The notes below the pieces were generated by a model. It was given only the letters and a program-made list of their open reading frames with translations, was not told the DNA's origin and searched no databases. A stretch of DNA of 64,000 nucleotides. It comes from Eledone cirrhosa. Its lineage: Eukaryota. A program made the translations under genes and the position numbers. The stretch lies in NCBI GenBank assembly GCA_964016885.1, contig OZ024741.1, positions 39,060,001 to 39,124,000 of the forward strand. The letters run 5' to 3'. Of the stretch, positions 18,801 through 24,800 are shown in pieces. Position 1 is the stretch's first letter. Each line of letters begins with the position of its first letter.

Positions 18801-21800
18801 GGTTGATAGGTCTTCTTTAGAGGTTTTAGAAGTCTTCTTTGTGTGTATATATATATATATATATATATATGTGTGTGTGTGTGTGTGTGTGTGTGTGTGT
18901 GTGTGTGTGTGTGTGTGTGTGTGTGTGTGTGTGTGTGTGTGTGTGTGTGTGTGTGTGTGAATGCATATATAATTATACGACTGGCTTTCACGCAGTTTCC
19001 CTCTATAAATTTTCCCCCACAAGACATTAGTTAACCCAACGCAGCCACGAAACCTAAGAAAGAGATAAAAAGAGAGCGAGGGAGAGTGTTTGTGTGTGTG
19101 TGTGTGTGTGTGTGTGTGTGTGTGTGTGTGTGTGTGTGTGAGAGAGAGAGAGAGAGAATGCCCGCTTTTCTTTAATTAAACCTCTTTAAAGAGATTTATG
19201 GCTTTGAAATTGTGTTTAAATTCGTAAGATTCTCGTGTGTAGGGCAATATCAGTTGAATAATGATAGTAAATTAGCACAGGTAGATATAAAGTATTGTTA
19301 CTTACCATATATCTGGGTGATCAAAAGGGTGTATATGGACAAGACCTAGTTAGTTGAAAAATAAAATATATAAATATATAAACATTAGGATTGTGTTTGT
19401 GTGTGTGTGAGGGTATGTTAGTGGGGTGGGAGTATACATTCCTATATTTCTTTCAGTTTGGCCCATACGTCGTATCTCATTCACACACACACACACACAC
19501 ACACATATATATATATATATGTGTGTGTATGTATGTATGTGTGTGTGTGTGTGTGTGTGTGTGTGTGTGTGTGTGTGTGTGTGTGTGTGTGTGTGTGTGT
19601 GTGTGTGTGTGTGTGTGTGTGTGTGTAAATAAATGTATGTAAAAGGTAAACAGAAATAGCGAAGCAAACGACACAGACCATTGAAGAAATATATTAGTCT
19701 AAAGCTTGAAATAGCAGAAAAAGTGTGTAAACATTTCGGGAGTTAGTCGTTCATCAAAAGTATATATATATATATATATATATATATACATACACACACA
19801 CACGTATATATATATATATATATATATATATATTGTTATACTTTGGGAGGGTCATGTTGCCAATAAGAAACACACGCACCAGTTGCTTTCACTTCAATTT
19901 AATTTAATATATATTTATAAATTTACAAATTTATAAATTTCTGGTTGGTTGGTTGGTTCCACAACCAGATAGTTGTTTATATATATATAGTCATAGTTCT
20001 TTCGTCACACACTCTGTGACCTCTTCAGTGACTGGGGATTTCTTTCTTCGTTTCTGTGCCTTTCCTTTCTTCTATCCTACGCCATTTTGTTTGTGTGTGG
20101 GTTGCGTGCTCAGTTTGCGCATGCGCCACATCCGGGTGTCTGTGTGTGTTTGTGTTCATTTTTCTATTTTTATATTTATATTTGTTTGTTTATTTATTTA
20201 TTTATTGTTGGTTGGTTGTTTGTTCTATGTGTGTGTGTGTTTTCATTTTGTCTTGTGTGTGTTTTCATTTTGTGTGTGTTTTCAATTGTAAGTTGTTTAT
20301 ATATGTGTGTGTGTGTTTTCATTTTGTCCTTAATTGTAAGTTGTGATGTTGCTGTTCCACTCATATTTTCTATTTAATTTTGGTTTTAATTCTTTTATGC
20401 TTACTGCCTCTGTAATTTGCCTAAACATTGCGTCTTTCTTGTGTGTGGATTCTATTTTTATTTCTATGCTCTCTAATTTACCCCTGTGTTCTATCTTAGC
20501 ATGTTGGTAGAGCACAGATGATTCTTTACTATCTTGGAGGTCTCGCCAGTGTTCATTTATTCGTTCCCCTATACTACGAGCTGTCTCACCTATGTACACT
20601 ATATTTTTGTTTCTACATTGTCCCTCAGTACATCTTATGCTATATACTACATTTCTAGTTTTACAGTTAATATGGGGGCTTATTTTACAGGTTATACATT
20701 TCTTATCTATACATGAGGGTCTTTGGAACGGGTATGTCTTGCTAATAAGTGTTTTTACGGAGGTACCAGGTCTTTCTACTATCTTAATATTGAGATTATG
20801 TTTCTTTAGGGCCCTTCTAAATTTGTAGGCTAGTTCACCTCTAGGGGTTGTATTGATGAACATTACACTCTGGTATTTATTGCTATCATACCATGAGTTT
20901 ATTCTATTGGCCTTGTTCTTAGTTCTTTCTATTCTATTCCAAAATTTGCTCCTATACAAGGGGCAGGTCCCATTTATGTCATTATTTACCATTTTTTCCC
21001 ATTTGGTTCTGGCTCCTTTATACACTCTGATTCTATCTCTCTGATTGTAGCCAGAGAACTGCATACGGTGGATGAAGTGTTGTATGTGTCTCTCTAGTTC
21101 TTCGGGGTTGCACATGCGGGACACATTTCTCATCACCCGTATCAAATCCGCAATCAGTATGTTGATTTTGGTATGGTCCGAAATGGCCGAGTTTCGGTGG
21201 ATCAGATGTTTGGAAGTCATGGGTTTGGCATAATGGGAATGGAGGATTTGTTTTTGGTTGTTAATAGTATCTAACCAGAGCTCTGTGTCTAGTACAGGTA
21301 ATCGATGGTTGGGGTGTCTACTTGGGTAGTCTATAGTAACTCTAATGCTCTGGTGGATGGAGTTTGCTATTTGCTGGATGCTTTCCATTGTGTTTTTCTC
21401 AGGTTCCTGACTGTTCTTTAGTGGGGGTGTCTTAACTACGATGTTTATATCATCTACGTAGCGGGAGTACATTATCAGGGTTAATCTGTCTTCTAATTGT
21501 TCTTTAAGTTTTTGTTTAAGTCTACTGTCCCACCATACCATGAACAAGTTAGCTATGTCGCCTGCAATGCTAACACCAATGGCTGCTCCTTCCTCTTGGG
21601 CATATGTTTTACCATTAAATTTGAACATATGTTCCTTAAGGGTTAATTTTATGCTGGCCCCTACCGCATGTGCAATCATTTTCTTCAGTTCATCGTGGTT
21701 TTCGGGTGTCCGTATGGCTCTGGTCCACCCGTTCCATCTATCTGTGTGGGTTTTCTTGGCCATTGAGGTAATGGTAGGTGGTCTGCCTCTTGCTGGTCTT

Positions 21801-24800
21801 GTAGGGCACAGGTTGCTAAGGTCATAAGTGTCTAGGTAACTATTACTATGGGTAAGCTTAAGTAGAAGTCCCAGCTCACTGGTATCAATCCCACGGAACT
21901 CAACCTTGCTCTCGCTGATCATTTCGACGCATTTCTCCACAGCAAAATCCACGTCAATAGATGGATACAGGGACACAACATCCATACTGCCTATTATGCA
22001 GTTTGTTAGGTCCCCAGATCGGTTACCCGCGTCGATTCTGCTGAGGAGGTCCTCCGTGCTGTCACACACATCTGGGGACATCTCAATGATGGGGCGTATG
22101 ATCAGGGAGAGGAAGTAGGACAGTCTGTAGTTACTAGCAATGTTAGCCCCACAGACTGGCCGTGTTGGTGGTCCCGCGACAGGGTCCCAGCCCGTTTTAT
22201 GGTCTTTTCGAAGCCCATACAACGCCGGCACGTCATTGTTCCAGGCCTGGAAGTTGTTGGCAGTCCTTTTGTTGGGCTGCATTATATTTGTCCACATCAC
22301 CATATGGGCATTGAGGGTTTTTTCTCTGTCCTCATGCTCCTGTGGTGTTACCTCTCTTGTGTTAGTGATGTGGGGTTGCATTGCCTGGATGTAGTTTGGC
22401 AGGCTGTCAACAGACATTCTGCCAGACTTGTCTGTTGGAAAGCATGCTATCTCTCCATTACGCGAGCGCTGCATGAGCTTACGCAAGCCATTTGCAGATT
22501 CTTCTCCCAGTTGCTGGGCCTCTGTTCTATTATGCTTCTTGCTATACTGTTCTATAATATTTCTAAGTTCGGATTTAGCTATACTAAATTGTGCTTCTGT
22601 TTGTTCATCGACCTGCGACGGCAACTGCGTGCGTTTGTTAAATGGCAAAGTCGTGGCGTGGACTCGTCGTAGGTCGAATGATTTATCGGAGTGGTTATAA
22701 AACGGAGAGTTCCAGGCTGCTGCTTTATGTGTACTTGCGCTATTGTTAGTTGTGTTGTGTCTATTTCCACCAACAGCAGCAGCCTCAGCTTCCTGGTTGT
22801 TTCTATGTCTCTCATAATTACTCCTGTCTCTTTCCACTGGCTCAATGTTGTTATCTACCCTATTTTGTGTGTCTGTGTGTTCGTCTTGGTTATTCTCTTT
22901 GTCCTTAGTCTCCCTACTCCTTTTAATCCTATTACTTTCTCTTATTTCTCTGATTTCTGTGCTACTGTCATTACTTGTTTTCTGTGTCTGTGTGTTTGTT
23001 AAGATTGTAGTGGTGGTGAGAGGCATTGAATGTGTGTGTGTTGTTGTTGTTGATGTGTGTTGTTGTTGATGTGTGTTGTTGTCTCCGTGTGTGTGTGTGT
23101 TATCGTTGTTGTGTGTGTTGTTATTGTTGTTTGTGTTTGCGTGTCTGTTGTTGTTGTATCTGGGTATGTTGCTGTTGTTGTTGTTGTTGATGTGTGTGTT
23201 GTTGTTATTGTTGTCTCCGTGTGTGTTGTTATTGTTGTTTGTGTCTGCGTGTCTGTTGTATCTGGGTATGTTGCTATTGTTGGTATTGTATCTGGGTATG
23301 TTGCTATTGTTGTTGTTATTGTTTGTGTCTGTGTGTCTGTTGTTGTTGGGATGTGTGTTGTATATGTGTGTGCGTATATTGTTGCTTTTGTTTTTGTTTT
23401 TGATGCTCCAGCGTAGTTTCGTAAATGATTTTTCTATTTCTGACAGACAACTAATCATATTTACCTTCTTGAATGTCGCAAATTTGGGTGGCAAACGTAA
23501 CACAGACATTTCATTATTATCTATTTTCGTGTTTCCATAAATGTTGGTATTTTTATTGTTGAACTCTTCAGATAATGAGGTGTCGGCCATGTTGATACCG
23601 TCAATTTTGTCGGGATATCTATTGGTATACTCTATAGTATCCCGATTTAGCTTTGCCTGTTTAAGCCACTTTAATTTTCTGTTAAAGTGCTTATTACATT
23701 CTTGGGTAATGTACTGTTCTTCGGGGCGTATAAGGCTTATAAATGTTAGTTTTTCTGCTGGTGTGGTGATTTTAGATATTTCATCTATTAGGTTACGCTT
23801 TAGTTTTTCTTGATGACTTAATTCTCTATAGATCTTCTTTTTTATGTTTAGAATTAAAGTTCGTTTTAGCCTATCTGCTTGTTTTTTGGTGAGTTGTAAT
23901 CTTCTAACGTCGGTATTGATGGTGTTGGTGTAGATTCTAGAAGTGGTGCACAGTTTTATGAAGTGTAGTTGTCGAGATGTTATGGTTTTTCGTAGACAAC
24001 AGAACATGGTGGTTTTCAGTATCTTGTTAGCCTGGCTAAGGCTTACGATATTTCGTTTCTGAATTTGTTTAGCAAGATTCTTTATCTGAAATCGTGTGTT
24101 GAAACCGATATTGTTATACTTTGGGAGGGTCATGTTGCCAATAAGAAACACACGCACCAGTTGCTTTCACTTCAATTTAATTTAATATATATTTATAAAT
24201 TTACAAATTTATAAATTTCTGGTTGGTTGGTTGGTTCCACAACCAGATAGTTGTTTATATATATATAGTCATAGTTCTTTCGTCACACACTCTGTGACCT
24301 CTTCAGTGACTGGGGATTTCTTTCTTCGTTTCTGTGCCTTTCCTTTCTTCTATCCTACGCCATTTTGTTTGTGTGTGGGTTGCGTGCTCAGTTTGCGCAT
24401 GCGCCACATCCGGGTGTCTGTGTGTGTTTGTGTTCATTTTTCTATTTTTATATTTATATTTGTTTGTTTATTTATTTATTTATTGTTGGTTGGTTGTTTG
24501 TTCTATGTGTGTGTGTGTTTTCATTTTGTCTTGTGTGTGTTTTCATTTTGTGTGTGTTTTCAATTGTAAGTTGTTTATATATGTGTGTGTGTGTTTTCAT
24601 TTTGTCCTTAATTGTAAGTTGTGATGTTGCTGTTCCACTCATATTTTCTATTTAATTTTGGTTTTAATTCTTTTATGCTTACTGCCTCTGTAATTTGCCT
24701 AAACATTGCGTCTTTCTTGTGTGTGGATTCTATTTTTATTTCTATGCTCTCTAATTTACCCCTGTGTTCTATCTTAGCATGTTGGTAGAGCACAGATGAT

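Follow-up and report, generated by a model that had tools for sequence, protein, structure and literature searches.

Architecture of the Insertion

The window (the whole 64-kb stretch of DNA analysed) contains an intact and very young, recently inserted Penelope-like retrotransposon (PLE), which lies as a composite insertion in a (TA)n microsatellite (Table 1). Its two arms stand head to head with the RNA 3' sides outwards, the left one 1.45 units long (6212 nt) and the inverted right one 0.51 unit (2190 nt). Self-BLAST and an exact repeat scan give a repeat period of 4278 nt and a direct repeat of 1934 nt at 100% identity, and the right arm shows no mismatch to the unit over its 2190 nt. The left arm is a seamless copy spanning two predicted ribozyme cut sites, with no scar at the unit boundary or at the (TA)6 of the unit; the surroundings of all three cut sites in the insertion are identical over 300 nt. 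The original prediction had placed the element at 19830..24311, of which the left limit holds, but the true insertion is larger (19830-28227). An HMM of the family, run on the window in all six frames, detected no other PLE coding fragments.

Table 1. Features of the composite element and its surroundings, in positions of the window
Feature	Position	Strand	Basis or detail
Composite PLE	19830..28227	.	Self-BLAST and exact repeat scan
Upstream 5'-truncated tandem copy (pseudo-LTR)	24108..26041	-	From ORF nt 2371, seamless with full unit; 1934-nt direct repeat, 100%, offset 4278
Inverted 5'-truncated arm	26038..28227	+	ORF nt 2170 via 3' UTR to +81; sequence comparison
Inversion junction	26038..26041	.	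4-nt microhomology; sequence
Intact single ORF	20330..24133	-	1267 aa
Asn/Thr/His-rich low-complexity in-frame insert	22724..23395	-	aa ~247-470, 29% N
RT motif A to motif B region	21596..21982	-	128 aa
CX4CXXC-X7-C linker and GIY-YIG endonuclease	20372..20713	-	CCHH; R1191/E1242/N1254
Hammerhead 1, type I minimal	24267..24311	-	Predicted cut 24272/24271; descriptor and shuffles; MFE shows stems I and II
Hammerhead 2, identical copy in downstream pseudo-LTR	19989..20033	-	Predicted cut 19994/19993; descriptor
Hammerhead 3, identical copy in inverted arm	27969..28013	+	Predicted cut 28008/28009; descriptor
Left terminus, putative RT start site 1	19830..19833	-	ORF nt 23-26; ATAT common to element and target
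Tail, right end only; end is putative RT start site 2	28173..28227	+	ORF nt 27-81; 55 nt (55-60 with ambiguous ends)
Left (TA)n target flank	19806..19829	.	28 nt including shared ATAT
Right (AT)n target flank	28227..28268	.	42 nt including shared A
(TA)6, longest alternating AT run of the unit	24256..24267	-	Directly 3' of hammerhead
3'-end fragment of related PLE family	14507..14591	-	End at ORF nt 81/82, followed by (TA)n; serves as third, test terminus

The arms meet at a CCAT/ATGG microhomology, of a length (at least 4 nt) reached in 1.3% of 200,000 random joins; from the sequence, the 3' ends of the two cDNAs are predicted to be complementary here. A 6-bp TGGCCA palindrome also lies at the join. 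The arm limits differ by 201 nt (ORF nt 2170 versus 2371). ORF nt 2170-2370 are confined in the left arm to the full unit, which ends at +26, and are found again in the right arm, which runs to +81. Given these extents (1.45 versus 0.51 units), neither arm can have arisen from the other by simple folding back, which makes two priming events likely; on the same geometry we rejected a simple snap-back as the source of the inversion. Being intact, with undiverged arms, the locus is a clean test case.

The Encoded Protein

The ORF encodes an N-terminal helical region followed by the N-rich insert, a reverse transcriptase (RT) with the motifs DKSG, D718 (motif A) and YVDD, a thumb, a zinc-finger-like linker, and a GIY-YIG endonuclease (EN). 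In the CCHH signature of the latter, C1168 and C1173 are invariant and H1211 and H1216 are conserved in at least 90% of 14 aligned proteins. The N-terminus aligns with long homologues. A later start codon reached through a spliced 5' end was rejected on this alignment together with the codon changes in the related-family fragment (7 synonymous and 7 non-synonymous); donor-like hexamers, looked for as the signal of a 5'-UTR intron, occur only at -24 and +87.

RVT_1 and GIY-YIG match in Pfam with E-values of about 2.5e-4 (2.4e-4 for GIY-YIG), both below curated cut-offs; a Pfam scan of the full-length protein recovered neither, and a PDB sequence search with the protein gave nothing useful. An AF2 model built from a 32-sequence alignment reached a pLDDT of 88.5 (single-sequence fold, 34). 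Foldseek and VIA both rank TERT first against this model (in VIA with Z 14.4, rmsd 4.0 and 374 aligned), and the best 14 matches listed in the structure comparison are all telomerase RTs (Z 13.1-14.4). With one ORF joining an RT of TERT-like fold to a C-terminal GIY-YIG with CCHH, and with a partial tandem carrying an inverted copy and a one-sided tail, this is an EN+ PLE. A scan of bacterial and archaeal genomes returned one relative (L001) among 45 pattern matches, a frameshifted 2.7-kb contig in a MAG that ends before any hammerhead and is probably host DNA; it supplied neither covariation nor additional termini.

Much of what is found here restates known PLE biology: the tandem, inversion and hammerhead layout, the circle hypothesis (2014) and internal initiation (2024) are already known, with the layout of tandem, inversion, tail and hammerhead published by Craig 2021 (PMC8557442). 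As in EN+ PLEs generally (PMC8557442, PMC3846280), the full ORF is preceded by a 5'-truncated tandem copy, with an inverted 5'-truncated copy upstream, the tail is one-sided, the pseudo-LTR includes the first codons and the hammerhead, and an N-rich insert is present in frame. The element differs in its tail (55-60 nt versus 30-40), in repeats of about 2 kb, and in the place of the N-rich insert, which is on the N-terminal side of the DKG motif instead of separating the RT from the thumb or the EN.

A Telomerase-Sized Insertion in the Fingers

The one unusual trait of the element is a telomerase-sized insertion in its RT. The region from motif A to motif B exceeds that of canonical C-terminal-EN PLEs by about 70 aa (manual count against Fig. 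S1 of PMC8557442), and its position is that of the TERT insertion-in-fingers domain (IFD). On its sequence, the RT belongs to a lineage with a fingers insertion of about 70 aa, which the canonical C-terminal-EN clades are without.

The Nematis clade shares the C-terminal EN with CCHH and a short CXnCXXC-X7-C linker (CX4CXXC-X7-C in the element, compared by eye with the rows of Fig. S2), but its C. remanei row has about 60 aa between motifs A and B by manual count against 128, in a comparison of figure rows. Neptune differs both in a spacer of 23-29 aa between its CX2-5CXXC and the EN (Neptune rows and distant matches P0041-42; 7 aa in the element) and in an A-B region of 56-57 aa. Members of the Hydra clade lack CCHH and have a CxCX5C linker and DKT, whereas the element has CCHH, CX4CXXC and DKSG. 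Naiad and Chlamys have an N-terminal EN and no canonical hammerhead, unlike the element; the insertion between motifs A and B is common to them, TERT and the element, and the predicted fold of the element is nearest to telomerase RTs. At 128 aa, its A-B region is longer than that of Naiad (~84) and inside the TERT range (~115-149, manual count).

Searched with the diagnostic RT motifs of the element, the supplement of PMC8557442 gave no matches; Repbase and older PLE surveys could already describe the lineage. That the element belongs to an undescribed PLE clade is a tentative proposal, to which we give slightly less than even odds. An insertion of this kind in a lineage with C-terminal EN is relevant to the question whether PLEs ancestrally possessed the telomerase IFD.

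Hammerhead Motifs

The two hammerhead ribozyme (HHR) motifs of the original prediction are confirmed by a descriptor that matched none of 1000 dinucleotide shuffles of the unit and none of 100 of the window; it adds a third, in the inverted arm, and the motif is intact in every copy (3/3). It comprises a 5-bp stem I, CUGAAGA, an extra G, a 6-bp stem II closed by G10.1-C11.1, and GAAA, with the cut predicted after CUA, 138 nt before the ATG at 24133 (originally put at about 140 nt). Features of the minimal hammerheads of PLEs (PMC4209133) that are present are the CUGANGA and GAAA core, U16.1-H17, a helix I of 4-5 bp, a long helix II (here 6 bp), and an extra nucleotide before G10.1-C11.1. Rfam gave no match at gathering score in the whole window and, for 24150-24450, none to a hammerhead family even at E<=10, and the 55-nt fold has z = -1.15, with 24 of 200 shuffles equally good.

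Stem III had been described as weak and non-palindromic, with an extra G before stem II. The extra G and the weakness are borne out, but the stem is half-palindromic (AG-AA-CU), G15.2-C16.2 being palindromic and the loop AA not. Nearest-neighbour energies are -10.7 kcal/mol without stem III versus -5.2 with 1 bp of it in the monomer, and -23.0 without versus -19.2 with it in the dimer, so stem III is not predicted to be stable, nor is it favoured in the dimer. For the CChMVd hammerhead, PMC3705267 reports strong impairment by an extra G at the corresponding position, and PLE minimal HHRs cleave poorly in vitro (PMC4209133). We infer a real but weak ribozyme that would need a partner or the element's protein.

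The two hammerheads on the coding strand are 4278 nt apart, as first noted, and they do bracket exactly one unit, but this is automatic for any tandem repeat. As the spacing merely equals the repeat period, we rejected it as independent evidence for a circle.

Termini, Tail and Target

Both outer ends lie in (TA)n, where a target-site duplication cannot be read. The element ends at ORF nt +22-26 on the left and +80/81 on the right, which supports the original proposal of priming internal to the ORF start; the termini extend 164 nt (to ORF nt 26) and 219 nt (to nt 81) beyond the predicted cut, matching the earlier estimates of about 165 and 220 nt. AT microhomology with the target, claimed for both ends, is borne out on the left (4 nt, reached by 2.7% of random junctions), whereas the right end shares only 1 nt (52%). 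A post hoc reading of the right terminus is a 5/6 match to +86, such a match occurring at 58 of 4278 positions.

The idea of variable internal AT sites is not supported: two of the three ends in the window (n=3, one belonging to another family) lie at +81, one of them in the diverged related family (65/81 nt identical), and (TA)6 is used by none of the three. Set start sites are favoured because the related fragment ends in the same +81 register and (TA)6 is unused. No HHR descriptor match was found in this fragment, at 14.5 kb. As a weak lead, both ends of the element coincide with the only two AATATCG of the unit; the related family is without the CG at the first site. A small hairpin topping out at +81 is not significant (z = +0.52).

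That the assembly mis-joined identical repeats into a false tandem and inversion is highly unlikely. The arms are 100% identical and microsatellite-flanked, and mis-assembly is known for PLE loci, but the join at a microhomology, the tail on one side only and the 3' ends facing outwards fit the published PLE layout, and the +81 end recurs in an independent fragment.

Origin of the Insertion

We favour, with a probability of somewhat under 0.6, a single event at a cut (TA)n site, both strands of which primed the RT at two set sites inside the ORF start, on an uncleaved RNA longer than one unit. The model is Anolis Poseidon (PAc), the only PLE system studied in vitro, for which Frangieh 2024 (PMC11167929) describe in vitro an internal initiation at two sites matching the ends of the genomic tail, cleavage and extension of both target strands, and a protein predicted to be dimeric. 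HHR mutants had no effect on insertion in vitro, no RNA-seq reads began or ended at the cut, and the HHR cleaves upon protein addition (PMC11167929). PAc and the element share two initiation sites inside the ORF start that define the tail, an AT-rich target and extension of both strands. They differ in that the start codon of PAc lies within its HHR, with the cut 26 nt past that codon (138 nt before it in the element), that PAc starts at about +111-118 in an AC-rich stem-loop with no homology to the target (versus +22-26 and +80/81 beside ATAT), and that the protein of the element has the zinc-finger-like linker and the long A-B insertion. The geometry points to two separate starts on two target strands, in line with the lizard element in vitro. 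Among the papers listed by a literature search on twin priming and Penelope, none concerned PLEs by title.

By analogy with PAc, the endonuclease would nick both strands of AT-rich DNA and the RT extend both 3'-OH ends. Protein bound near the ORF start may set the two initiation sites, which lie 55-60 nt apart. Annealing of the (TA)n primer could be aided by the short AUAU patches there, although these alone would not determine the site. One cDNA would have reached 6212 nt, crossing two HHRs, and the other 2190 nt, crossing a single one, after which their complementary 3' ends (CCAT/ATGG) could anneal and be filled in, giving a head-to-head inversion with a one-sided tail. A weak HHR would leave much read-through RNA uncut as template, with cleavage as a side or later step.

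The template had been proposed to be a circular or uncleaved multimeric RNA. The seamless 1.45 units over two cut sites exclude, as the sequence reads, a single linear HHR-to-HHR monomer unless the RT jumps precisely; the circle is unsupported, though not refuted. The RTs of R2 and of group II introns are known to jump precisely between templates, and the HHR motif is intact. Linear HHR-cut monomers copied with exact end-to-end jumps at the cut would nevertheless require three scar-free jumps, while the three cut-site regions are identical over 300 nt, which makes this origin very improbable.

Uncleaved read-through RNA is favoured over a circle, although a circle would leave identical DNA. 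In the circular alternative, which we consider unlikely, two HHR cuts would free a 4278-nt monomer, a host ligase would close it, and the RT, primed at +26 or +81, would roll more than one turn, regenerating tandem and promoter. HHR cleavage, a circle and more-than-unit reverse transcription were proposed for PLE tandems by Cervera and de la Pena 2014 (PMC4209133). A circle would account for the seamless 1.45-unit arm over two cut sites and for more-than-unit copies from a one-unit transcript, and in a cut monomer the starts would lie 164 and 219 nt from the 5' end, a position of little use unless the RNA were circular or uncut. Animal type I HHR retrozymes, related to PLE pseudo-LTRs, form circles (PMC7229834; bioRxiv 10.64898/2026.07.22.740005). 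These non-LTR retrozymes (Cervera and de la Pena 2020) resemble the element in having one type I HHR per tandem unit, a weak stem III that needs dimers in some, and a proposed circle-templated tandem cDNA; they differ in being 170-400 nt long and non-coding, with circles shown experimentally, whereas the element is 4278 nt long, coding and autonomous. Against the circle stand the weak stem III and extra G, the spacing that is not independent, the Anolis HHR that is dispensable in vitro with no reads at its cut (PMC11167929), and the Naiad PLEs, which build tandem, inverted and tailed arrangements of the same kind although they have no canonical HHRs (PMC8557442).

The read-through proposal has difficulties of its own. 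It requires upstream transcription and a donor no shorter than 1.45 units, and read-through alone does not explain how tandems longer than the donor transcript regenerate over time. The Anolis element is of another clade and is reported to initiate without target homology, while ATAT is found here at both sites; moreover, the HHR is intact in all copies, and that of Anolis cleaves with protein.

A multi-step origin, in which a new copy inserted by homing at the corresponding junction of an earlier one, copies recombined, or an antisense transcript primed itself (Arkhipova 2013), is improbable. The Anolis enzyme cuts its own ORF-pLTR junction (PMC11167929), the unit carries its own (TA)6 target, and antisense-RNA self-priming was proposed for palindromic PLE inversions (PMC3846280), with TGGCCA at the join here. 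However, all arms are 100% identical, the unit boundary and (TA)6 are scar-free, arms ending 201 nt apart do not make a symmetric hairpin, and a tail that differs between the ends calls for two starts. Reported PLE targets include (TA)n in Naiad and Hydra, with a microsatellite bias in Neptune (PMC8557442, PMC3846280).

The widest reading is a long shot: an active member of an undescribed PLE clade, with C-terminal GIY-YIG, HHR and telomerase-sized IFD, whose RT would align (TA)n ends on AUAU patches of a ribozyme-made 4.3-kb circular RNA, prime both strands and roll round the circle. If correct, the element would give the first demonstration of movement through a circle for an animal retrotransposon that is autonomous and encodes protein, and its primer alignment would resemble that of telomerase. 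The element bears on how PLE tandems regenerate and on the role of the hammerhead, and it yields exact predictions, namely cleavage at 24272/24271, initiation at +22-26 and +80/81, and a circle of 4278 nt.

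Structure of the insertion

The insertion is a Penelope-like element (PLE) in animal DNA rich in microsatellites. It comprises two arms of opposite sense (see table); within the left arm is a perfect direct repeat of 1934 nt, and the arms meet in a 4-nt CCAT microhomology, as much as 1.3% of random joins reach. (TA)n adjoins both outer ends, which lie inside the start of the ORF, at nt 22-26 on the left and nt 80/81 on the right, where the original prediction had placed them, such that 55-60 nt of the ORF start occur at one end only. The original prediction, which covered 19830..24311 and had two hammerhead ribozyme (HHR) motifs bracket one unit there, was essentially right as an observation but incomplete. 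In Craig et al. 2021 (PMC8557442) a partial tandem plus an inverted truncated copy is called typical of PLEs, with a tail of 30-40 bp at one end; the element here is alike in its tandem, inverted copy and one-end tail. A matching layout, with a pseudo-LTR that takes in the first 12 codons, is described by Arkhipova et al. 2013 (PMC3846280). Mis-assembly of the locus is very improbable, and a multi-step origin of the tandem and the inversion is doubtful.

Features of the insertion and of other repeats in the window
Feature	Position	Strand	Remarks
Whole insertion	19830-28227		extends past the originally predicted interval
Left arm	19830-26041	-	6212 nt = 1.45 units, period 4278 nt
Right arm	26038-28227	+	2190 nt, inverted 5'-truncated copy, 0 mismatches
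HHR 1	24267-24311	-	C3 at 24306
HHR 2	19989-20033	-	C3 at 20028
HHR 3	27969-28013	+	C3 at 27974
Stem-loop 3' of HHR cut	24190-24260	-	UCUGGUUG/CAACCAGA plus AU stem
GCGCATGCGC and AAAATGGCG	24394-24405 and 24358-24366	-	upstream of HHR; recur in each pseudo-LTR
Four overlapping AATAAA	20189-20206, also 24467-24484	-	upstream of promoter-like motifs and second HHR
RT fingers insertion	21596-21982	-	about 70 aa; common to broad C-terminal-EN PLE lineage
In-frame Asn-rich insert	22724-23395	-	29% N
Related-family fragment	14507-14591		65/81 nt identical; ends at +81/82 into (TA)n
Terminal-inverted-repeat elements	893-2219, 28252-28689, 31501-32305, 54802-55554, 56181-56970		repeats of 140-330 nt; adjoin (TA)n
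LINE ORF2-like fragments (by eye)	36011-37069	-	presumably RTE-like
	39990-40796	+	presumably CR1-like
	46394-47488	+	presumably R4/Dong-like
Minisatellite arrays	45412-46281 and 62633-63966		38-nt and 47-nt units

The encoded protein and its lineage

Pfam RVT_1 and GIY-YIG both match at E of about 2.5e-4, under the cut-offs and thus weak support. An alignment-based structure model (pLDDT 88.5) has telomerase RTs as its best matches. The best named homologue among 43 matches, most of them unnamed, is an Octopus vulgaris hypothetical protein (67% identity). The Asn-rich insert has an N/S/G-rich counterpart at the matching place in the Octopus homologue P0002, absent from most other homologues; N-rich in-frame inserts are reported in PLEs (PMC3846280). 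A frameshifted relative from the same lineage occupies positions 1-2683 of L001, a contig that was binned into a Desulfobulbaceae MAG but most likely comes from an animal host.

RT motifs A and B are 128 aa apart in this element; among 44 proteins the distance is 123-131 aa in 35 and 56-57 aa in four distant matches, with five unscorable. Motif A to C measures 160-209 aa in 56/56 scorable proteins from 149 further representatives. Since a profile made from the lineage itself picked these representatives as its top matches, this count speaks to breadth, not frequency. By hand count of Fig. S1 in PMC8557442, the A-B distance is about 57-60 aa in Penelope, Poseidon, Nematis and Neptune, about 84 aa in one Naiad and about 115-149 aa in TERTs; Craig et al. 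list "no IFD" among the traits that canonical PLEs with a C-terminal EN share. In its short linker the element is Nematis-like, but the insertion is unlike Nematis and breaks the "no IFD" trait, so we file the element as a PLE without a clade. The unusual RT lineage, a new contribution of this analysis, is possibly an undescribed clade, set apart by motif spacing relative to the hand-counted PLE rows. It may, however, have been catalogued before. An annotation of octopus repeats from 2026 includes 31 Penelope-like families with recent activity, and the passages on these give no clade (PMC13282606).

Hammerhead motifs and candidate transcription signals

A minimal type I descriptor confirmed HHR motifs at both predicted sites and found a third, identical motif that the prediction had missed; it matched none of 1000 shuffles of the unit and none of 100 of the window. 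An Rfam search returned no hammerhead match to these motifs, and their fold energy is unremarkable against shuffles (z -1.15). Cleavage is predicted after CUA, with the ATG 138 nt downstream; we found no mention of this triplet in PMC1636495. Stem III has 2 bp and an AA loop, and a dimer, pairing AG-AA-CU with two A.A mismatches, is not favoured by nearest-neighbour energies. With the minimal HHRs of PLEs, which are described as cleaving poorly in vitro (PMC4209133), the motifs share a helix I that is short, a helix II that is long and an extra base ahead of G10.1-C11.1; when the CChMVd viroid had an additional G at the corresponding position, the effect is reported to have been strongly detrimental (PMC3705267). 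Given the descriptor and shuffle results, the stem III energies, the extra G and the PLE minimal traits, the motif is real and its predicted activity probably low. HHR 1 and HHR 2 do lie 4278 nt apart, as predicted, but they bracket one unit merely because this is the repeat period. The region of the stem-loop 3' of the cut is overall no more stable than shuffles (z -0.76).

GCGCATGCGC and AAAATGGCG, which we take to resemble NRF1 and YY1 sites, suggest a putative promoter about 50-100 nt ahead of the ribozyme. If it fired in both directions, transcription from the inverted arm's copy could pass over the junction and yield an RNA of more than 1.45 units. Use of the AATAAA cluster would stop the mRNA ahead of HHR 2, a reading weakened by the nine AATAAA in the A-rich unit.

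Start sites and a model for insertion

The predicted AT microhomology with the target holds at the left end (4 nt; chance 2.7%) but amounts to only 1 nt at the right (chance 52%), or 5/6 when extended to +86. Priming at variable internal AT sites is not borne out: the related-family fragment also ends at +81/82, and the unit's longest alternating AT run, a (TA)6 directly after the cut, is not used as a terminus. The unit contains 29 ATAT sites. Thin as three ends are, they point to two set start sites rather than variable ones. Termini inside the ORF start, at two sites, are shared with Anolis Poseidon, in which reverse transcription is reported to start within the ORF at two sites that equal the tail ends, with both target strands cut and extended, insertion unaltered by HHR mutants and no RNA-seq reads ending at the HHR cut (Frangieh et al. 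2024, PMC11167929). Splice-donor-like sequences occur immediately past the +86 site (GTAAGC; 24041-24047, minus strand) and at about -22 (GTGCGT; 24149-24157, minus strand), and the related-family fragment has GTGAGT upstream of its ATG. Introns at the 5' end are known in PLEs.

The left arm would be a cDNA grown rightward from +26 and terminating in CCAT, and the right arm one grown leftward from +81 and terminating in ATGG, the complement of CCAT. Neither is a simple fold-back of the other, because the left arm is longer and contains nt 2170-2370 only once, in a copy that terminates at +26 instead of +81. We infer two priming events, one per strand of a single cut, with the cDNAs joined via microhomology. 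Twin priming in L1 is an analogous process. This geometry is a new contribution of the analysis; among the papers listed by a literature search, none was by its title about twin priming in PLEs.

The left cDNA passes two cut sites scar-free, and therefore its template was an uncut multimer, a circle or cut monomers copied with exact template jumps, the last being improbable. An uncut multimer, jointly with the rest of the twin-priming model, has a probability of about 0.57. The circular RNA entertained in the original prediction is unproven and rather unlikely: a circle model was proposed for PLEs in 2014 (PMC4209133) and the route is demonstrated for short retrozymes (PMC7229834; bioRxiv 10.64898/2026.07.22.740005), but Naiad PLEs are described as building the same structures without canonical HHRs (PMC8557442). 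DNA alone cannot tell circle from multimer; the original interpretation is partly right and was published before.

Other repeats

The terminal-inverted-repeat elements are probably non-autonomous DNA transposons, and one of them adjoins the right flank of the PLE.
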